A stretch of DNA of 64,000 nucleotides from Somniosus microcephalus (lineage: Eukaryota), in assembly GCA_052327205.1 (NCBI GenBank), contig CM126209.1:33852001-33916000 (forward strand). The letters are read 5' to 3'. Below, piece by piece: positions 11-53,399 of the stretch; positions within the stretch are counted from its first letter, which is position 1; the number at the start of each line of letters is the position of its first letter. The notes under the pieces were generated by a model that saw nothing but the letters and a program-made list of their open reading frames with translations, did not search any database and was not told the origin of the DNA. Position numbers and translations under genes: made by a program.

Positions 11-113
11 TGTGGTACTAACCATCCTAGTGGATGGGGGATTTGGCCGACGGTACCTGGCGAGAGTGGGTAATAGGGAGAAATATCTGAAGGATGTGGA
101 GGCCTAGGAATTC
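11..113 (-). CDS. TCF7L2: TCF7L2 internal coding exon (exon 7 equivalent), (G)[33 protein letters not shown](Q)
   Basis: Minus strand reads tctctag|GA ATT CCT AGG CCT CCA CAT...GGA TGG TTA GTA CCA CA|gtaagc; 103 nt. Peptide matches vertebrate TCF7L2. Internal alternative donor TG|GTTAGT (exon end 23) removes LVPQ. Confidence 0.97.
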
Positions 114-9590: not shown

Positions 9591-9723
9591 CTGTTTTGGG
9601 GTCCACATCTGCTGGTAAGTGTGGTGGAGGGTTACCTGGTGTGAAGTGTTCATTGCTGTATGTTATCAGTGGCGTTAGCGGGTGGACATGGTGGGGGTGT
9701 TGCACAACGGGTACTTTGTTAGA
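9591..9723 (-). CDS. TCF7L2: TCF7L2 internal coding exon (exon 6 equivalent), [44 protein letters not shown](G)
   Basis: 133 nt; acceptor with branch-like ctaat and pyrimidine tract ...tctttcttttggcag|TCT, donor ACAG|gtaggt. Peptide is the characteristic TCF7L2 segment (inside ORF 9583..9777). Confidence 0.98.
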
Positions 9724-11889
9724 CTGCCAAAAGAAAGACAGGAAAAAAAGTGGATTAGACAACAGCAAACCAACCAATGAACCATGACTTAGACTAATGG
9801 CATTGAGTTGAAGGAAAGGGGGGGGGGGGGGGGGGAGAAATATTTAACAGCCTTTTGCTAAATCCTCAACAGGGGACATTTTAACAGATTAAGTGTTGCC
9901 AAAACTCAAGAGGCCTGCATTAGATGATGAATGGTTCAGATCAGATTTTATTTTGATATATGTCATCTCTCTTCTGCTTCCAATTTAAAAAAAATTGTAA
10001 CAAAGGAGAGTAATTTGAATCACTCTGTTGTAAAACAACCATACCTGTTACATTTATTAATCAGGCTTTAGTTACTTAGCAAACATCCATATTTCACCAA
10101 GTCAACACCCAAAAGAAAAATCCATTAAATATGAACCATCTCAAACTAGGGAATCAGTGTCCAAAAAGGTCATCCAAAGAGAGAGAAATTATTAAAAATA
10201 CAAGCCTCTTTGGGTTGCAATGATAGACAACTATGATCACAATGAAAGAGATGCTTTGCTTTTACTTGGTATATTTAGCCTGGTTTATGAATTGTCAGGA
10301 AACAAAAACATCACCTGGTCTTCTTGTCCATTTTAATGACTCCAATTCAACATGCCCCTGATACTCCATAATCATTGTACCTTTACTGTCCAACAGACCA
10401 ATTACAGGTGCAATAATTTTTTTTAATAAAAAGCCAATTTTGATTAATGCCAATATAAAAATAAGCACAGTAATCAAAACACTTATTCTTCATACAACAA
10501 TGAGCCTTTATCATAAATTAGATCTAACACACAGTTATTGTATTATGAAATTAAAGGACAACATGCTAGATTAAAAAAAATGGAGATATAACGCGTTCAA
10601 GGAAATATTTCCACACAGGTCTTCTCAATATACAGAAAAGAGACAACAGTTTGTCATCATCAGGTCTGCTTTAATGAATTAGTGCCATACAGTTATATAT
10701 ATTACACACGCAAACACATGGGAAAATGAGTACGTATTTTAAATTAGATCCTTGTTAACTATTTGAGGACTGAAAATCCGAGAGTAAACAGATTAAAGAT
10801 TCACAGTAAAATAAAAATCTGAAAATGCCACATTCCAGGAGACAGTGTTATCTATGTACTACTACTTAGTGTCTCTATTACTTTGTATGTGGGCCCACCA
10901 GTGACATCTAGCAGCACTACTCCGGTACTACATTATGCTGTTAAAAAGCTGATTTAAAACATTTATCCAAAAGGTGTAGTTTTAAGAGAATATTTTTGAA
11001 CTTATGAAACCATAATGGTATTACATTATCCGGTTCTATTTCAGTTACACAACACCAAGTATGCAAAAAACTCATTTGTACAGCTACTTGAAAAGATGTG
11101 CCTATTTTGAAGACCACTATTGAGGTGCAGGATCCGCAGGGTTAATATTGTCACTATTTGGACTTTTGATATAACAGTAACAACCACCAGCCCCTTTTTT
11201 AAAAAAAAACAGATCTCATTTGTTTCAATGGGAAGTAGAAGTAAAACCTTGAACTTTGGCATGAAGATTTCATCATGATGCTACAGGGCATTTCAGGCAG
11301 TGGAATTGCAGCTGCTTGCTCTTTGGGAGAAGGCTCTGTCCACTGGCATCATAAGCCTCCCGTAAGTTTCTGCTTCGGAAAGAATTTGCAGTAGAATCCT
11401 GCGAGCAAACAGCAGGAGGCTACAGCTAGTTATTTACTGTCTACAGTCTGTCCTGCTTCTAATTGGCGCCTGCTACTGTAGTAATGAGTTTACATTGAGG
11501 CGTGGACAATACAGAGTAGATCATGATTCAGTTTCTTCCCCTTCATAAATGTTTTGAAAGCCCCATCTCCTCATCAACAAACTAATTTCAATTGTAATGA
11601 AACATTTAGTAACAAAAAAAAATCAATTAGGACCCAATACAATCTGACTTCGGTCCATCTCATTTTAGAGATTCCTTGGATCCTGCACCACTTTTCCCTT
11701 CCAAATCTACATTTTATTATGCAAGGTTAATATTTCGGCCAAATTAGCCAAGACGAACTTTAACTTAAAATGCATTAACACATAGGAAAACAGTAGTTAG
11801 AACATTACCTCCTTTTGCAAAGATCACAGGTCTAATGCAGCCTAGAGTAAAGGGGATAGAATATTTCCTCAGGAAGTGCGAACAAGACA

Positions 11890-18500: not shown

Positions 18501-20578
18501 CGCAAAGGGTCCTAAGCACTTGCTTAAACACATTTACCTACTACAGTACTTCGGTTTATCTCTCTTGATTCAATCATGGAACAGTTACAGCTTTGCAACA
18601 GCAGGCCAAAATGTTCATACAAACCATCAGTCTCGCCATTAGAGTAGATTAGGATTAAAATCAGCCATCAAGTAAATGTTCCCTCTCAATTAACAAATAG
18701 TTTCATTGTCTGGGGTGCACTGTACCAGGTTTAAAATAATAAGTAAAAATGATGCTCAAACAGCAACATACGTGTTTAAAAGCAGGGGGGGGGGGAAGGG
18801 GGCACTTCAAAATGTTGCAGGGGGAAAATATTCTACAAAGTAGATTAAAGTTTTGGAATGATATGTACTATATTTAACACGCTTAAAAGATTTAGTTCAC
18901 GTCCATAATGATGCAAGTTCATACCACCTCAAAAATAGCAATTTTCTCTACAATGGAAATCTGCAACTTAAAACTCTGGACATGATTACTTCAACACCAA
19001 CAAGTTCTATGAGAAGTTAACATACATTATAATTAATGCTTTAACAATTCACACAGGAATGCTCAAGATTTGCTGTAAAATGTCCCGTCACACACTTAAC
19101 ATGTTTGCGTAGTTGTTGTTCAGATGCCAGTCCATACCAAATATGTATTTAAGTGAAATACAACCGTAACATAAAAACGTTCTGTAAGTTAATTATATGG
19201 GGGAATCACAGGGAGCATTTATCAAAAAATAATAAAATTTCAGCCTTAAAATGCTCATTTTTTTTGTTCTGGTGGTATGTTCAGAACATCTGGCACTAAT
19301 TTTGTTCATAGCAGGAAAAAGACAGCCCCACAGCAGTGGAATATATATACACAAATAAAAACCTCAACTTATATACATATTTTTTAAAAAACATCAGATT
19401 TGTTTTTAAATCCAACAAGAATGCGTAATATCAGACCCAAATCGCCATTTGGGTACGTTCTAAAATATCATTGAATGGAAGGCTTTTGTTACACTACCCC
19501 ACGGAGCACGAAGAGATGCCAAAACCTCAAAAGTGAGGTTTTCCTGTAAACTCAAAAGGACTGTTCAGAAAGGCTCTGTATATTCCTTTTTAAAATTAAA
19601 TAAAAATCTTCCGCTCCCTCACAAAAATCTAAATGAAAATGATTACATTCGATAACACCAACTTGCTGTCTAGGATTCTACAAATACCTATTATATCTGA
19701 AGAACACCATGCTTCTAATAATTTATTTAAATTATTTTTTTTATATACACTTCAAATGAGTAAACCTTCGGTACATCAAATTATGTGCAATCTTGGAAGT
19801 ATTAACGGACATTGTACAAGTTTTAAAGGGAAAGAATACAGGGCAGGGAGAAATTATACTACAGTATATACTACAGCAATATTTCTTTCACATTTAAAAT
19901 GCAAGGCGCTTTTATTTATATAAAGGAAATTAAAATATTTTGGTTTTCACGCTCTAACTGATGTCTGTGATAAGAGATAATTAAGAAAAAATGCAACTTT
20001 TTTTCTCCCCACCCCCCACCACCCCCCTCGACATGACAAGCATAGATATTACAAGAAAAAAAGCCCCGTTTTACATTGGGTTTTGTACATGATTTGCACA
20101 CTGTTGCATTCAAAACAGCTTCGATATTTGAGCTACATAAGCAACTCTTCAAGGTATCAGAGCACATCCCACTTAAATTTTAAAAGTACAATTTAACTAA
20201 ATGGAAGCATGGCAGTGGAATGTCGGAATTAGTCTGGCTACAGTTCTAAAATGTAAATTCTGCACTGCAATCTACGAGCGTAGAATATCCCGTACTAGGC
20301 AGCAATACAGAAAAAAATAAATCAGTATCGAGCTGGTTAAAGCAACTTTTCTAAAGAAAACCCAATGTCGTGCTGCCTGCAATTGGATTTTCCTTTTTTT
20401 GTTTCTTCTTCACAGAACAGATTCTTATGAAAGCAGCGACACAAAGGTCACAGTTTCAAGTGTTGGATAGAAGGTCGCTGCCTGAGCTGACCACCTCTTA
20501 ACCACAGTAACTGGCCTTATCTGAAGCCCATCGTGTGAAATAAAATACAAACGTGCACTGTAGCGTACAGTAACTTAC

Positions 20579-20701
20579 CCAGCTGTTTAGATTGAGGTGC
20601 CAGCAACCAAACTGATGGAGAAAGGAGAGCCCAGAGGCTAGCGTTCCTCCTTTATTGTTCCCTTCTTCCATTCCCAGCAAAATTGCATCCCTCGGGTACA
20701 T
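20579..20701 (-). CDS. TCF7L2: TCF7L2 alternative first coding exon of an N-terminally truncated (dominant-negative) isoform: MYPRDAILLGMEEGNNKGGTLASGLSFLHQFGCWHLNLNSW
   Basis: ggcATG start, 41 codons, perfect donor TGG|GTAAGT in phase 0, compatible with the SNKV exon. Resembles my recollection of a human short-isoform N-terminus (MYPRDA...LSFLHQFGCRHLNLNSW). Confidence 0.8.
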
Positions 20702-23700
20702 GCCGCTTTGTCTTCTGTTGTCTCTTAACCTCTACAACTTTCCCCCCCTTTCTCTCTTGCTTCGGTGCCGACTGCGCTTTGTTTCTTCCTGGTTTTTCTA
20801 GCGTCTTTTTTTTTTAAAGTACTAAAAAAAGATGTCTCAAAAGATCAAGAGCTTTCCAGTTCTGTGGCCTGGTGTTTTTAGAACCAACATCCTCATTCAA
20901 GTTTGCCGTTAGCAGCATCTTAGTCCCGGTGCAGTCCTATATCTGCCGTACAGCAAGCACCAAAATTTAGGGCACACTCAAACGATAACATAGATCACTG
21001 CACCAAAATGCTCACTTAGAAATGAGTAAGACCGCACACACGGGTGTAACCCCATGCATACTATTTATTTTCTTTTCAAAGCCTACAACTCTCCTAGGAT
21101 TACCAAAATGACAATGCTGCAACTCTATATGGAAAGGTATCAATAAGTGCAGGAGTGAAGAGACAAGCGTTGGTTAAGGGAGCATGATCAACAAACTGTA
21201 GCATGCAGTCACATCTGTGGGAATGTCAAATCCCTCACGCTGAACTTCTGGGGGTAGAGCTGCGAGAAAGCTCTTATTTTTTTGACACAGTGACATTATT
21301 ATATATATATCATACATATACACACTCACATACATATAAATATATAAAAAGACACCTGTGAGGTCTTGCCATCAGTCCCAGCAGGTTTTTTTTTATTATA
21401 ATAGAAAATAGGGGGGGAAAAAAGGCAAAGCACTAGACCTCACTGCAGCTTCTACTGGCTGACCTCGGCTACACACAATATACAAGAGCAGCTTTTGTAT
21501 TGCAAGGATTCTCTTTCGGAGTTGCTCTTTGCATACTGCTTCCCGTCGCTAATTGCATCCCCAAACAAAACCCTCTCCATCTCCAAATTGGGGGCAGCTC
21601 ATATGTTCCAGTAAATGCTTTTCACAATAGAAGCAAAAGTAATGAAATGTTCCCATTAACCCTCACCCCCCCTCCTAAGTATAGGTGGCATACAGCCCAC
21701 GACACCACCACCCCGCCCCCCCCCCCCGCAAAAAAACCCCAACTTTTTAAAAACAAACTTTACACGCGTACAGTTTTAAACTCGTTTAGTAGATTCTGCA
21801 GAACACTTAACACACTTCTTCCTCTCATCTATCCGTACTGCGCAAGAAAAGTGACAAGACACGAGAACAGGAGCAACAAAACAGTGTGCCGTTTTTCCCT
21901 CTTTATTTAGTGCCCTGCACTAATCTGGCCTTCGCGTGCAAAGTGTCGGCCAGAAATCTTTAAGGCCTTAATACCAAAACAAAACCTTTGAATTCCCTTT
22001 ATATGGTGCAATACAGGCGCTAACAAAGGCAATGAGGCTACAGTTTGACATGTAAAAAGCCCAACAACGAGGCAGCTAATTACATTCCCTCCCTCTATTC
22101 ACGGTGGCCACCACACTCCAGCAGCTTCCTTTGTCACACGTGCAATTTCTTAAGTAAACTGGGAGTTTGGTTGCTGATGATGGACAGTTACTAATCATTT
22201 AGCACAATGAGCGCTAAGTGTAGGCAGAAAGGATGGGCAACTTCAACACAGATTTCTTTGGGCTTGGAGGATGTGAGAAGAAAAAGGAGCGGGAGGAAAG
22301 CTCGCCACAGACGACGAAAGGTGAACACTTAAAATACCAGACCCTTTCAGCTCACATATTTACCTTGCATCTACTGAGGGGAGGGGGGAGGGCTGGGGGG
22401 AGATGTGGAGGGAAAGGCAAAAAAAAACTGTGGGAAAGAGAGAATGCAAATCAAACTTGCCAAGTCAGATCAACTTCAGCCATTACATCAAGCAAAAAAA
22501 AATCTGAATACTTCCTTTACTCAATAGTTTTAAAAAAGTTTTTTAAAATTGCAATTAAAATGAAACACATTCTAAAACACAATGCATCTAAGTCATCATA
22601 TTTGTCTATCTGAAATAACGCTTTTCAAAAGCATATTATAACATTCAGCCCTTCTTAAAATTTTCTAACTTACCATTTACACCTGCTCAAATTACGATGC
22701 TTCACACTGCCTGAATTCAAGCATGCTGCCGTTCCCGTGCTACAGCACAAATCAGCCAGCTCTTCATGATGTGGGCAGATCCACTGGAGGGCAGCACCCT
22801 ACCTGAGCCACTTACAGCCGAGATGCTGCTGAGATAGGGACACGAAGCGATTGCATCCAACTCCAGCTCTCCAGGAAAAGATGCTCAAGTTCAGGTCTAT
22901 TCAGTGAATTACCTTGCTTCATGGGAAAGAGATAATGAGATGGCAGCGCTCATTTGATCAGAACCAGCCCCAAACCACTCTTAGCAGTTCAGAAAGGAAC
23001 AAAAGAACAACAGTCGCTTGCTTACTTGAAAACATTAAAACCAGTTGCAGCCTCCTATAATGTTAAATCGGCTGGTACTTTGAAACCACAGACAAAAAAA
23101 AAAAATTTCCCCCCCTCACCCGAGGTATAAAGGCTAACCTACCGTTTATTTTGCCCACATAACCAGCTCAGTTAAACACACTCGTCGGGAAATGCCAAAC
23201 TATGCAATAATTTTGATACATCGATTCCAGGTAAAAAATAAAAATAAAAAGGCAACTTAGCAAGTTGTATATCTGCACTCTAATATTTGCCACAGTCGAA
23301 TGTGGCAAGCGGCTCCATAAAGCTTCACTGCCCACTTTTGAAGCCTGCGTTACTAACACACGCAGAATGACACCGCTGAGCGCCTTTAAAGGATACTAGG
23401 AAAAAAATGACTATTGATCTTCAAATGGTGATAATTGAAAAGATCAAAAGATTAAACAAAATCAAAAAAATGCGCTGACTTACCATGTTATGCTTTTTTT
23501 TTTGTTACAACTTGGTTGAAATTTCAGTCAAACAAGCTTCATCGGAGGTGTCAAATTTTTTGGCGGACTGTGATCGTATTACTTCCGCAGCCTTGCCTCA
23601 CAATACTTCAGAACTTTTTACCTAGCTTTGGTTTACTTTGAAAGCTGCAGCTCAGCAAACCAGCACAAATTATCTTGCCACCTTCTACAGCTCTGATGCT

Positions 23701-26000
23701 TTGGCCGCTAACTTTGGAAGGCCCTTTACTACTGCATCAAAATTAGCATTGTCAAAGCAGTTAATGAATATTAATACTGTATTTGTCATTGGAGCTGGCC
23801 TGATGCTGAACTCCGAGCCATCCATCAGGGACAAGATTAAGAACACAATTATTTCTGACTGACAGGGTCCAAATCTGCTAGACTTTTTTTTTTGCAATCT
23901 AAAAAAATAAGAGACAAAAAAAAAACAACATCTTATGGGTTCCCCCTGGGGACTAACAGTCAGATTAATACACTTTTAATGAAGTGAAGGCTATTAAGTA
24001 TGAAGAAAAAGCAAACAAGATGTACAAGTCGAACTTACAAATGCGGCAAGGTGGCTGATAAAAATTAAAAGAATGGCATATCTTTTTCGACAGCTGTCTG
24101 AAATTTTTCTTCAGAGCTTTCTGGAGTGAAGAAAGAATCTTTCTTCCCAAATCTGCATCATTTGAATAAGGAATGCACTGTTATAACCCACATGGGATAA
24201 TTGTCTCTATCTTACGTCTTAACAACATCAACTCAAAGACAGGATCCTAAATAATTCCTACACAAATATTATAATCAAGACTTCTTTAAAAGCAATCGAC
24301 AATCATGATTATTCTCTCAATTGCATTTGCATAAACCATGTTGCTAAAAATACTTACAAAAAAAATATAAAACGCTGAATAGACTTTGTGCAGACTTTAC
24401 TATAACCATAATATAGGTTACGAAAAATTATTTTGAAGGTATAAAAGGCCAAGTTAAAGCATATTTAGAAACCTTAGAGCTACTTTAACGCTGACAGTTT
24501 CCGTGGGAATTTGGAAAAGTCGTGAACATAGACAACAAAAGGCAACTTAGTTCAACTACATTTCTTTAGTTGCCTTTTATTTGCAGCTAAATATCACTAA
24601 AATTCCCTGTGTGTAAAGTCACGCTACTTGTCTTGATCTCAAGTAACAGAACTATAAACGCACAGTAAACAACTTTTGCCGTTACGCGTATTTACTTTCT
24701 CGCCACCTCCCGCAAGCTATTGCTCCCTGGATTTTGGTCAATTTGCACAAGATTTTTTTTTTTAAATCGGCTACAGAAAATGGCCTTGCCGCTCCTACAG
24801 GTTTCATAATGGGAGACAACGGAAAAGTTCAGATGCAGTTTTAAAGCACAAAGGAAGTTTGGGACTATAGTCATTTGAATTGCAAACCTAAAATGTTTAA
24901 TTTCTCAGCCACCCTTCAAGAATAATGCCGGTGCACCAAATATTGGCAAGCATAGAACTGGTCTTATCCCCCCGCTCACGGGGCTCATTTTCCTTTCTCT
25001 GCAATGTTAAACCTTTTAAAGCTATTTTATTTAAGAGGTGATTTAAGGTTGGGGAGGAGGAGGAGGAGGAGGAAAATAAAAAAAAGGAGAAAACTGACAG
25101 ATGCGACAGTTAATGCCATCTGACCAGTGAAACGAGGGGGTCTGGGTCAAGCGACTATGGCTGCCGAGCTAATCTACTGCTCTCACTGACCACCCCACTG
25201 GCTGCTCCTAATACCATTAGCAATCCTTAGATGAACATTCTAAATTGGAGTTTTGTCCTCCGATGAGCCAGTCTGACCCCGCTGCAACAACCCTGGAGCT
25301 CCATATGCAGATGGTAAATCTCCTGAAAACGCTTCTTTCAGCTTTAAGATTTTTTCCCCCCTTGCGCCCAGTCCTTTTTGTTTCATTCGATTCTCTTTGC
25401 CCTCTCTGATTTGAAATAAACACCACAAGCGCGAAAATGCACCCTTTTTTCTAGCCTGTTACTTGTACCATTCAGTTTCAGGAGTACGTCCGTCCTGATA
25501 CATTTCGAACAATCTATTGGTGTTTTTTTTTGTTTTACCGGTCTTTGGGTAAATTACTTTTACGCTGCGCGTTCTTAAGGGGGGGAAGAGAGGAAAAGAG
25601 AAAATGGAGGATGCTTGTGAAAACTGTCAGATTTGAAGCTTTCTAACCAAGTGAAGTTAGAGGCTGCGGACTCTGAAGCGGTGGGTGCAGAAAGCATTTG
25701 CCTGACAGAACATTTACGGCAGACAGCTCCCGCTACCTCTACTTACACAGCACGATCACATCAGCCCTAGTATCAAATTAACTCACTGACTTTGAAAGTT
25801 ATTGATCTGCTATTAAGACACTAGTGAACTTGATGAAATCAGTGCTGTAGGTGCAGTGAAGACTTCAAAGTCTCACACAGACACATAAAACAAGTTTCTT
25901 TGATCCTTTTTACGATCCGCAGAGGGTTTAAAGCCCAATTCTCGATGTGCTGCTCTTCACACTCGTCAGGTCTGATTTTTTTTACCAATAGACAGCTTGA
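20702..26000 (-). promoter_or_regulatory. Probable internal promoter / alternative first-exon cluster of TCF7L2
   Basis: Upstream of the MYPRD exon; raised CpG, several minus-strand donors (22363, 22673, 22802, 22912, 23483, 25214), TCF-like motifs and no transposons. Matches the position of the known intronic dnTcf7l2 promoters. Confidence 0.55.
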
Positions 26001-41000: not shown

Positions 41001-43070
41001 TATCTTAGCTACCTGCTTCCCCTAAGGTGCAAGAGGTTCTGAAGAGTTTGCCTGTTTACTTGGGAGGGGTGGTTGGGTTAAAGTGCTACTTCCTCATTTT
41101 CATTCATGGGTCACTTCCCCCTCAAGAAGAAAGTAGAGGGAGTATGGAATGCAACCCAAGTTTCAGAAGGCATTCCTTCATGGGATGAGGTGACACTCAC
41201 TGGCAAGGCAACCTCCTTTCATCAACCCAGATTATGCCTTTCACTGGACTCTTTTCCCTGCAGAGCCTAAAAACTTTGCTGGATTACAGATAGTCCTACC
41301 TCAACTCAAGAATCTTTAACATTGTGGGCTCAGTCACCTGAAGAGGCACCAGCCTCGGACAGTGCTTATGGTTAGACACAAAATGACTGCCATGATCCTT
41401 TCAGCTGCTGCACTAGCACTGGATTATAATCGCTGTCTTGTCAACAAGGAAGGGCATGACAGGACAGGACAAGACAGATACAGGATTCAACCATCATAAT
41501 TCAACTACACTTGCAGTTCTTGCAACCCCACTTCCTGCCACTTAGAGATTTGCGGCCCAAACGATCTTACCCCCGCAGGCACCTACACGGAACAAATGGA
41601 GGGGGTGGGGGGGGGGGGGGAGGGGTGGTTGGTGGAACAAAGACAAAAATCTACATGATCTTTTCACAGAAAACATCGCGCTTAAAGTACCTTGGATTCA
41701 GTGTTCGTTCTAATTCTTAAATGGCTGCGCGGCCCATTCAAATTTTCACGCACGCGCGGTTTCTTCTATGTAGAAACCGGTGAGCGGCCTGCATGGAATA
41801 TCTCCAGACTTTGCGGGAACGTTGCTTGGATTCATTAAGAGTGTACTGTGTGAACCGTCTAAAACAGGTCAATAAAAACATGAAGTCTTCTGCTACTAAC
41901 CTATGAGGAACGATTTGTCCCTTTAGGCTGTAAAGACAGATACAGTGCATCGCCCAACACCTTTTAAAGCACATACATATTTTCTGCATCTATAATGAGT
42001 TTGAAATAGAAGAAATCCACAAACAAGTTGCAATTTAAAATATTCGGGTAAGTTTGCTGAATTTGTGCTCCTAGCACAGAGTTGTGTGTGCCGGGAGCAC
42101 GTTTTAAGTGTTCAGACTCGAAGGCCCCACAGGATTTTTCACCTATTATCACTTATCCGACACTGTGTCACACATTTCAACTTGTATCTAATATATCTGG
42201 GCGGGCCAATAATTATTTTTTAAAAGAATATTTAGAAGGCAATGATGTCCAAAACATTAATTTTAAAATTTTAATTAAAAACTGGCTGCTTTATGATAAA
42301 TTAACAGTAAGGGCAGAATACGAAGGTTCATTCATACTCAACTTGCAATACACACAAAAGCATAACCAAGTGTTGTCCATTCCAGCTAACATCGGAATTT
42401 CCATCCTGGGACTCCCAGTCACCAGCCTGTACGCATGAATATTTACTGACTAGGTCAGTAGAATCATAGTGTTACAATGTATGTGCTTACACTGCATGAA
42501 TGGAGAAAACTGCAAGTGCAAATCAGATGAAATGCGCATCACTTCTGTAACCTAAAGGGATGATATGATTGGGATCAAGGCTGAAAGGAGATAAAGCTGA
42601 AAACAATATGGATATCTGGTTAAAAAAAAGTTAGCTCGAAAAATCAGAATTTCTTTCAAGACCAAAATGAGGTGAGGAAAGGGAAACTGGATAACTAGAG
42701 AAAGGTAGAACTGGGTCAAGAGCAGTTGACTTTAAATAAACAGGTTCGCACTGCTTTATGATTCTACCAAATAACACTCAGCTAGATGACTTCATCTAAC
42801 AATGGACCCACACAATTTTCCAGTGAAATGCTATGGTGTCATTTTCAACAGAATGTTTCTCCAAGTAATAGACTCAAGGCAACATTGAAGCTGAGATGAA
42901 GGCACCCTGGATTTGTGTCAGGGCTCCCTTTGAGAGCTGCAAATGTTGGCAATGCTGTTTAAATAACTATAACCTAAATGAAGAAATAGCCAATCCAAAA
43001 TAATATTTTTTTAAACTATATATTCTAAATATGAGAAACAACTACAATAGCTCATTTATCTATCTATCTA

Positions 43071-43760
43071 TCTTCTATATATATATATATAAATAAAAGG
43101 ATACTTCTGTCTGTCATTCCATCTGTCTGTCTTGAATAAACTCGAAAGTTATGGAGCGTACCTACACGTGCGTTACGTCGAAAGAAAGCTGACAATTCCA
43201 GAACCGTCATAAGCGTATTTACTTTTCGGTCGGACTAAAATTGTTCGCGCGTTATGCAAAAAACCTTCAAAATTAAACTCATTATCTGCTAATAGCATTG
43301 ATTGACTGACGTCAAGGTCGACCAATCCTGTGCCGTCACGATTGACCAATCCTACAGTTCAGTCGCCTGATGGTTGGCCAATCACTGCGTCTGTGGGTGG
43401 GACTAATGCTTTTCAACTCGGGCATCGGGCAGCCATTGCTTCACTACTTCCAGCTCAAAATCTGCTAATCCAGCTTCTAAAAAGTTAGTATCTCTTTTAA
43501 AAATAACATCACATTTACCAAAAACGTTTTATAAGTACTTTCACTTTCATCTTTGAAGCTATTAAAAAAGGTAGAAATGTTGCCCGGCAGCAGATTCACA
43601 GAGGGACACAGAGACAGGCCCCAAAGCCTGGGACTCGATTTAAAACGTTGCCCGGCAGCAGATTCACACAGGGACAGACAGACAGGCCCCAAAGCCTGGG
43701 ACTCGATTTAAACTGCCCGGCCCAAAACAGCCCTGGCAACGCCAGGGCCCCCCCAGCTAG
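43071..43760 (+). mobile_element. Non-autonomous Helitron
   Basis: 5' A|TC followed by TATA-rich and CTGTCTGT motifs; 3' hairpin GCCCTGGC-AAC-GCCAGGGC (43730-43748), then CTAG|T (43757-43761); no TSD; CpG-rich; internal 68-bp tandem duplication (43579-43721). The 5' TC could alternatively be at 43059. Confidence 0.82.
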
Positions 43761-50970: not shown

Positions 50971-53399
50971 ATTGCTTCAGTTAAAAATCTAAATTCATTT
51001 TACACTATAAACTGTGATAGAGAGGAAAATTTGAAACAGCCAAGAAATATGGCCAGCCACACCCCCTCCCCCACCCCAGCCACTTTATTCCCTTCTTTTT
51101 CTGTCCGTACTGCAAATGAAACAGTTGTGACTGTCCTAACTACTGACTCCTGTTTACCTAAATGAAAAAATAAGGCTCTAAAACAAAAAGTTTGAAAACT
51201 TCCAAGTTTGCTATTTTACTTTTTTTTTAAAACACCCCACAACACATTTTTTCCACCAAAGGAACCACCTTTCATTCACATGAAGAGTCGCACCCCAGAC
51301 AGGTCCCATAAAAATGACTACAGTTGCACTGGAGACAGAACAGTATAGATAGGATGTGAACTATCGCCAGTCATGTATTTTGTTGTCTAAATATTTTCAC
51401 CCCGGTACTGAAACTCGAGCTGCTGCCTGCAGGTGACATTCTAAATGTCCAGTCACTTCCCAATACGCTTCTACAGCCCAAGAGGCCACAGGGATTTAAA
51501 TTCCTGGTGACACCGGCCCGCCTCTAAACTGGTTTACTGTACTCTGTGTACAGAAGATATAACAAAATAGATAAAAGTCTCTTGCAATTAACTTGTAGAC
51601 ACGAGGAGCTTCATGATATCAAAAGCCAACAGTTACAGTGGAAGGGCGCGGAGACATTTTAAGCTTTTTATTGAAAGAGAATTCCATTACAAAGGAGAGC
51701 GTGTTATTAATGGAGCTTACTGGAGCACCACTTCTGCATTTGTTCAATAAAAACTTAAATTCGCAAAATCAGTTTTTTTTTTTTTTTTATAAACGCATGC
51801 GAGACTACTTTGAACAGAAGATTTCCAAAGCTGCTTCAGGTTAGCCTAGTGTGTGTGTATGCCATGCAGCAGAGATAAACCCAGCCCTATAGACCCAGAG
51901 TTACATCCGCACATTCTGAAATTAACCCCAAACTGCTATGGAGATTCTCAGGAATAGTGAAATGTATTATAATGTCATACTTTTCATCTTTACACACATT
52001 TTGCACAATCTCTTTGATGGGTGATGGAGAAACATTTAATTAAGTGTTTCCCCACCCCACGAATAATGGGACACAATCATTGCCGGTCAAGAATGGTTAA
52101 GAGAATCAGAGGGAGCTGGGTGGGGAAAGAGTAGAAAGCAGGGACAATATGTCAAGTTTGGAATATGAAAATCAGCTGTATAGAGGAACATTCAATGTCT
52201 CGCCCAAGTCTCTACGCCAAACCTATTTCATCACTCACCATCGAACTTTCCCAGGCCACTCTCGTACAGGGTGAAGGCACAGGCTGCTGCGGATCATCTT
52301 ACCAAGTGCCCCTTCACCACATGACCTTCCAAATTACCCACTGGCTTTGGCTTGACACTAATTGGTAAACCCGCTGAACCATATCGAGGCAAACAAAAAG
52401 ACACCTGGAGTTCTGTCAAAACATGTCATCGGTGAAAACTGAACATTATAAATGTGCTCAGACCCGCCCTGAAACAACCTGGGGTAAAATTTGCGAGAAG
52501 AATGGGGTAAGTATAACCTACAGGAAATTCTAGAATTCTGCACTTGTATCCAGATTATATGATTCTGAAATTCAGGTTAGATCCAACAATTGGAAAGAAT
52601 GTGCATTTGTACTTCCTCACTGGCGGGTTCCTTTACTATTCAAACATCTCTGCATGATAAAATGGAAAGTTGACTATAATAAAAGTAGCTCTGAATAGCC
52701 TTTCAAAAATAGCAGATCAAATTTCACTTTAACATGGGACTGCAGGCAAGTAACTGAAACATGGGATTCTCGGCTCCTGCTACTGTCAGAATTTCTAGAT
52801 TTAACGAAGAATGTGCTTTTTTTTTTTTAATCATAATTTGTAATGTTATGTTTATTTGTTATAGTGTGAATGTCAATCCAAAACTTTGCAATAATTATTT
52901 TTGCATTAAATCAATGGTATATTGGAATACAATCTAAAATCTAACCTGTAAGATTTCAACAAAGTGCCTAAAAAGCCCTCACAAGAGGGAAGTCTATAAA
53001 ATAAATCAATTCACTTCCCATACAAGCCAATGCCTTTTACCAGCATAGTTAGTCCAAGGTCCAGAAGGTGTATGCCTTCATTAACTGCCTGAAGCACTGA
53101 ATCACACAAACTGTTAATAATTGACAAAGAATTGCTTCACCTTGCTATAAACCAATTCCATATAGCCACCGATTCTCAACATTAAACCCATTTTCATGGT
53201 AAAACATCAACTGATTCAAAGTATCTTTATTAGCACTATACTCCTCACCTAGAAGAGTTTAACGTGGGCTTCTCCCAGTAGGTAAATGTCCCATGTGGTA
53301 TCATGCCATGCCTTCAATTACCGGCCCCAACCCTCCACACCAATCTTTCCCATTCTCGCGTTCCCTTGTAAAGTCCTCTGAAACACGAGAGGTGCTAGA

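Follow-up and report, generated by a model that had tools for sequence, protein, structure and literature searches.

An alternative first exon in intron 5 of TCF7L2

The window, a 64,000-nucleotide stretch of Somniosus microcephalus DNA analyzed at its full length, carries TCF7L2 exons 6 and 7 on its minus strand. Upstream of them lies an open reading frame with the anatomy of an alternative first exon. The features around it are as follows.

20579..20701, minus strand: putative alternative first exon, coding part, 41 codons from Met to Trp; ATG at 20701-20699; 38/41 residues identical to skate protein P0001
20573..20578, minus strand: predicted splice donor GTAAGT, phase 0, beginning at 20578; W-V-S continuation in 15/21 further ORFs
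20702..20900, minus strand: putative 5' UTR; the limit at 20900 is that of an earlier reader and is itself putative; in-frame stop at 20734, 10 codons upstream of the ATG at 20701
9591..9723, minus strand: TCF7L2 exon 6, 133 nt, without Met; 45/45 identical to skate; acceptor ends at 9724
11..113, minus strand: TCF7L2 exon 7, 103 nt, without in-frame Met, LVPQ motif at its end; the window stops just beyond

An earlier note on this DNA had described 41 open codons that begin with an ATG, end at a GTAAGT donor and join exon 6 in frame, and we confirmed each of these elements on the minus strand. The donor (G|GTAAGT) and exon 6 at 9723 are both in phase 0; the exon 6 acceptor consists of a pyrimidine tract followed by CAG, and the exon opens with TCT AAC AAA. 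The note had also credited the ATG with a good context. The ATG stands, but its surroundings (GCGGC-ATG-T, with G at -3 and T at +4) are adequate, not optimal. ATG is absent from the minus strand between 20889 and 20702, and of the 10 upstream ATGs in 21300-20702 none opens a frame that overlaps the start at 20701. Within the 64-kb window we found no match to exon 5 or to upstream TCF7L2 exons. The exons for the Groucho site and the HMG box fall beyond the window, and these features were read instead from the skate ortholog. Transcription of the first exon, splicing from 20579 to 9723 and translation from 20701 are likely in this shark, judging from annotated orthologs.

Orthologs across jawed vertebrates

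A search with the peptide alone gave one match among 6 candidates, and the family was recovered once words from exon 6 were added to the query. The single match was TCF7L2 isoform X18 of a skate (RefSeq), which is identical at 38/41 residues and runs directly into exon 6. Residues 1-75 of this skate protein, used as query, returned 3790 hits. Among the best 120 clusters of these 3790, which were the ones examined, the peptide was present in 45 (the top 45). The 45 carriers include skate, sturgeon, cypriniforms, salmonids, percomorphs, frogs, squamates, chicken, platypus, a carnivore and rodents. The distance from Met to Trp is 41 residues in 42/45 (two of the others have 35 and one has 58), the Trp is joined directly to exon 6 in 42/45, and an upstream extension is annotated in 8/45.

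An exhaustive phmmer search of 1.84 billion representatives yielded 22 hits, 21 of them new, all sharing the same peptide pattern; no paralog of the peptide was found among these 22. Eighteen of the 21 new hits are 41 residues long, and in 15/21 the Trp is followed by V-S, as read-through of a kept GT donor would give. Among the 66 peptides there are five length changes, every one of which keeps both ends in one frame. The same 66 peptides contain no stops, a count that is biased because protein searches cannot show copies with a broken frame. Jawless fishes were not named among the hits, which does not amount to absence, given that members are hidden by clustering. In frogs and teleosts, identity of the peptide goes down to 41-63%. 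The same junction occurs in separately annotated genomes of chondrichthyans, ray-finned fishes, frogs, reptiles, a bird and mammals. Some of the listed gene models are ab initio, and such models also absorb neighboring non-coding elements. Two salmonid proteins (P0017, P0025) differ in peptide type from two others (P0016, P0018), and both duplicated gene copies may keep the exon if the paralogy that we suppose is right.

By sequence comparison, the exon is orthologous across jawed vertebrates, and the proposal that the peptide had been kept across gnathostomes held, from skate to rodents, in 45 of the best 120 clusters. The exon cannot be called novel: RefSeq-type models, those of skate included, already annotate it, and this window adds one elasmobranch member.

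The layout of the human exon was deduced from published variant numbering, not from the human protein sequence itself. Variant W34L (c.G101T) is given on transcript NM_001349870.2 (PMC12540182), as are P113L, R243W, K283N and C337Y (PMC13665058). In the peptide-bearing isoform of Mustela, residues W34, P113, R243, K283 and C337 all coincide with the human numbers (5/5). Three other proteins that were checked fit at W34 and P113, with later positions offset through length differences. Furthermore, NM_001349870.2 and NM_001349871.1 have been named as DN-TCF7L2 isoforms (PMC13693294). Because all five published residue numbers fit and the transcript bears this name, we conclude from the numbering that human NM_001349870.2 contains the exon, in the same 41-residue layout. 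The layout agrees with the human short isoform cited in the earlier note; the residue given there for position 34 does not, the human residue being W. A tumor variant at this near-invariant position, W34L, was called deleterious; it is one somatic call in a small cohort (PMC12540182).

Constraint on the encoded peptide

Among 45 distinct 41-mers, M1, G24 and W41 are invariant; Y2, G32, W34 and L38 are found in 44/45, G10 in 43/45, and K17 and Q29 in 42/45. M1 overlaps the start signal, and W41 the donor. Position 31 is hydrophobic in 45/45, using six different residues. The motif proposed in the earlier note, LSFLHQFGCxHLNLNSW, proved to be the shark version of the sequence, since several of its residues are rare in the 45 (F27 in 5, H29 in 3, F31 in 7, S40 in 11) and its 'x' is W in 44/45 and in human. 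The accompanying idea that conservation is stronger at the ends than in the middle fared well: over residues 1-5, 6-23 and 24-41, boundaries that we set after looking at the data, there were 1.6, 4.9 and 2.9 parsimony changes per column, respectively. These changes were counted on a hand-set species tree with 36 of 43 tips, from which 7 near-duplicates or odd joins were excluded. The 36 tips required 149 changes in the peptide vs 9 in the first 41 residues of exon 6; the peptide therefore changes ~16 times faster than exon 6.

As a neutral reference, random single-base missense changes were drawn 2000 times at each of two transition ratios, a null that concerns amino acids only. The mean BLOSUM62 score of the peptide changes was -0.23, vs -0.61 under the null, a value reached by 1/2000 draws and by 0/2000 at the higher transition ratio. 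At the peptide ends the corresponding means were -0.10 and -0.76, and residues 6-23 did not differ from the null (187/2000 draws). About 6 stops were expected and none was seen, a count weakened by ascertainment through protein searches. One-base changes suffice for 89% of the substitutions. Of two metagenome scans for orthologous DNA, one gave 0 matches and the other 55 pattern matches, of which none was confirmed. Taken together, the amino acid comparisons show constraint at the level of the residues themselves at the peptide ends, and we read the pattern as that of a peptide that is probably translated, under moderate selection at its ends and with a loose middle.

Resemblance of the peptide to known families and motifs

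The peptide alone matched no Pfam family, gave two matches among PDB sequences (both at E>1) and had no usable match in the ESM Atlas. AlphaFold2, run on 31 sequences, returned a mean pLDDT of 42.4, with values of 37-46 over the first 50 residues, too low to be informative. We also considered the eh1 motif (FxIxxIL, pattern from PMC2701438). Its best register begins at residue 25, has F in 8/45 and places Q, E or H at the sixth position in 45/45, and we rejected it. A WRPW-type tetrapeptide is absent from the peptide. Homology with cassette exon 5 of fish tcf7l2 was likewise rejected, as likeness was at chance level (19/675 pairs at p<=0.05, median p 0.43).

The start codon and the size of the short product

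Exons 6 and 7 lack a Met, and the first Met downstream is residue 147 in 5/5 proteins checked. In the skate ortholog, LVPQ is found at 117 and FPPHMVP, the Groucho core, at 150, placing Met147 three residues before the core. Groucho binding is poor in a LEF-1 fragment that retains just three residues ahead of the core, and a stretch of 25 residues upstream of the core is protected by Groucho (PMC2701438). A start at Met147 would sacrifice LVPQ together with the flank for Groucho binding, and so a short transcript probably depends on an ATG in its first exon if the Groucho region is to stay whole.

The short S-type TCF7L2 band of mouse runs at 35 kDa (PMC3825142). By calculation, the product would weigh 38.0 kDa with the peptide, 33.7 kDa with one Met and 22.2 kDa if begun at the internal Met. 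Since the last of these is too small, translation of the mouse form would start upstream of exon 6. The observed 35 kDa is nearer to the one-Met mass than to the peptide-bearing mass, which leans weakly toward a bare-Met form as the main one; the peptide-bearing form may be minor.

Neighboring candidate first exons and conserved elements

Four further features lie upstream of the exon.

22668..22676, minus strand: candidate further first-exon end ATG|GTAAGT, one Met in phase 0 with exon 6; proposed from sequence only
23478..23486, minus strand: second candidate ATG|GTAAGT exon end, one Met; proposed on the same basis
22088..22213, minus strand: conserved non-coding element, part of the promoter cluster; translated identity of 65% with a bird gene model, and a stop and a gap here
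23682..23825, minus strand: highly conserved non-coding element; 43/48 translated positions (90%) identical to three bird gene models, with a stop here

All three minus-strand GGTAAGT sites of the window fall within 2.9 kb, and 1209 of 200,000 random triples were as tight. Clustering is weaker for G|GTAAG (3/8 sites upstream of exon 6), and ATGGTAAGT by itself is not above chance, with 2 seen and 17/100 shuffles reaching 2. A targeted search for proteins with Met directly before exon 6 found that none of the best 120 of 3771 begins in this way. The two ATG|GTAAGT sites, a pattern noticed post hoc, may nonetheless serve as bare-Met first exons, and by analogy such exons would fit the mouse cluster of at least 10 first exons. 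A third ATG|GTRAG site lies far upstream in intron 5 (52231-52239, minus strand).

Conserved elements and raised CpG are found upstream of the exon. Against bird, the element at 23825-23682 has 5 differences in 48 positions (mean BLOSUM62 -0.75, one stop), and the element at 22213-22088 has 15 differences in 43 (mean BLOSUM62 -0.62, one stop, one gap); these two controls are single pairwise comparisons, which illustrate rather than test. Because of the stop in the window and the radical changes, the three bird 'hypothetical' models that take 23682-23825 as a coding exon are likely wrong. In translated identity to birds, this neighboring element exceeds the exon (90% vs 73%). We also asked if the first exon could itself be a conserved non-coding element misread as an ORF, and rejected this: unlike the two neighboring elements, the peptide has no stops (among 66, a biased count) and its changes are conservative. 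The element at 22088-22213 adjoins a homeodomain-type site, TAATTA (22082), and two TCF-type sites (22028, 21992). Counts of TAATTA and of TCF sites upstream of the exon are no higher than in the rest of the window.

Relation to known short TCF7L2 isoforms

Vacik et al. 2011 reportedly described first exons Ex1b-e, from which intron-5 promoters produce a short, dominant-negative TCF7L2.

The first exon of the window likewise lies in intron 5 with its donor in frame with exon 6. The skate ortholog aligns only with positions 138-222 of PF08347, and so is without the β-catenin-binding domain; it retains the Groucho core at 150 and the HMG box at 208-276, in exons that lie outside the window. The shark exon thus shares with short TCF7L2 (PMC10208975; NM_001349870.2) an intron-5 first exon joined to exon 6 and the lack of a β-catenin-binding domain. 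It likely begins the known short, β-catenin-blind TCF7L2 and adds to it a partly conserved putative leader. Anatomy, orthologs and the human transcript all support the central proposal of the earlier note, a coding alternative first exon of short TCF7L2.

In mouse, first exons of this kind (exon 5') number at least 10, eight of them within about 6 kb. When eight are deleted, the short protein is lost and the calls of pups are impaired (PMC10208975). The short isoform accounts for almost 70% of Tcf7l2 mRNA in embryonic mouse thalamus (PMC3825142). The short form is mentioned for mouse and Xenopus in reviews (PMC4963812, PMC3468386, PMC6147171), a smaller protein has been noted in zebrafish (PMC4194317), and PMC6772062, PMC10670284 and PMC8651982 add little. 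The earlier note had called the product a Wnt repressor. This agrees with work in cells, where a dominant-negative construct represses TOPFlash in HEK293 (PMC10208975), but is disputed by isoform knockouts in embryonic mouse thalamus: there, genes are reported to shift in the same direction as after loss of the long form, 37 genes changed on loss of the short form vs 297 on total loss, and the short form substituted for the long one without β-catenin. One published construct with an N-terminal deletion begins at residue 162; exon 6 opens with this residue, so the construct does not contain the leader.

The mouse and human literature on short TCF7L2, in the text available, treats these exons as promoters or start sites without discussing a coded leader. 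Peptide-string and topic searches of the literature did not find the leader peptide; Vacik et al. 2011, or figures and supplements, may cover coding capacity. Publications describe the isoform class and databases annotate the exon, but in the literature searched we found neither the pattern of constraint nor the start-codon logic. Comparable systems share part of this design. In dnLEF1 and dnTCF7 (TCF1), an internal promoter likewise gives a β-catenin-blind HMG-box factor (PMC4963812), but no paralog of the TCF7L2 peptide was found among the 22 phmmer hits. Cassette exon 5 of ray-finned fish tcf7l2 also places a short peptide directly before exon 6, and in zebrafish this 20-residue exon, at the same acceptor, raises Tle3b binding (PMC6908431). 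The fish cassette, however, is internal and part of the full-length protein, whereas the leader is a first exon, and no clear copy of the cassette was found in the window.

Interpretation

We favor, with a probability of roughly 55%, an account in which the exon supplies a start codon and a weak-motif leader to short TCF7L2. The intron-5 promoter cluster would be transcribed in shark brain, the first exon spliced to 9723 and translation begun at 20701. The main job of the exon would be to provide the start codon that keeps the Groucho region whole, and the peptide itself would be a likely disordered leader, dispensable for making a short isoform. Its C-terminal half, G24-W41, with alternating hydrophobic residues ending in W-x-x-x-L-x-x-W, could be a weak short linear motif, modulating the stability or the partner binding of the product from one among several short transcripts. 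Where β-catenin is present in the nucleus, the product would repress Wnt targets; where nuclear β-catenin is lacking, it would work together with the long form. A weak linear motif is the simplest reading because 41 residues with fixed tryptophans are kept though a bare Met might suffice.

The same residues could be read more ambitiously, as a dedicated interaction module that replaces the β-catenin-binding domain, with 24-41 docking TLE or a β-catenin-independent co-activator and giving the short isoform an activity of its own in embryonic diencephalon. The presence of G24, G32, W34, L38 and W41 in 44-45 of 45, the steadily hydrophobic position 31, the maintained length where one Met would do, the effect of the zebrafish exon on Tle3b binding (PMC6908431) and the reported replacement of the long isoform without β-catenin are all consistent with such a module. 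Yet Pfam and PDB gave no match, the eh1 spacing fails, likeness to the fish cassette is at chance, frogs and teleosts drop to 41-63% identity, and loss of the short form alters few genes (37 vs 297 on total loss); we judge a dedicated module to be unlikely. We are similarly doubtful that the peptide is a passive leader, in an exon retained because of its start codon, its donor and regulatory DNA or RNA signals that overlap it, with protein selection removing stops and harmful residues only. The higher translated identity of its non-coding neighbors to birds, the predominance of one-base changes (89%), a mean BLOSUM score of changes that is still negative, the neutral-looking middle and two nearby ATG|GTAAGT sites, which suggest that a bare Met suffices, would all be expected of a passive leader. 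Against it, the substitutions at the ends are much more conservative than neutral draws (1/2000 and 0/2000, one figure for each transition ratio), and hydrophobic columns swap residues but stay hydrophobic, which a DNA element would not favor. It is highly improbable that the stretch is a conserved intronic element unused as an exon in this shark, with the database proteins being propagated gene models: in this species the exon is known from its sequence alone, and some models are ab initio and swallow neighboring non-coding elements too, but the ATG, frame and donor are intact in the window, and the same junction recurs in separately annotated genomes and in a human NM_ transcript.

The account of a start-codon exon with a weak-motif leader bears on an isoform that is needed for mouse vocalization (PMC10208975) and whose mode of action is now disputed. 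A leader constrained from elasmobranchs to mammals provides a concrete, testable feature on this disputed, disease-linked isoform. A further proposal, possible but with the odds clearly against it, is that first-exon choice creates two classes of short TCF7L2: bare-Met forms, and a leader form, kept since the shark-mammal split, whose G24-W41 segment docks a cofactor in place of β-catenin. If so, exon choice would switch the short isoform between competitor and autonomous regulator, the 'dominant-negative' and 'redundant' results would be reconciled, and variants in the exon, which are intronic on the full-length reference transcript, would become candidates for TCF7L2 neurodevelopmental disorder.

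Repeats in the window

Intron 6 contains a minisatellite at 1935-2642, with 22 copies of a 30-base unit that are 93% alike and pass into a 38-base unit. A 68-base unit is tandemly duplicated at 43575-43712, and the CpG ratio of the window peaks, at 0.82, in the 1 kb bin that starts at 43001.
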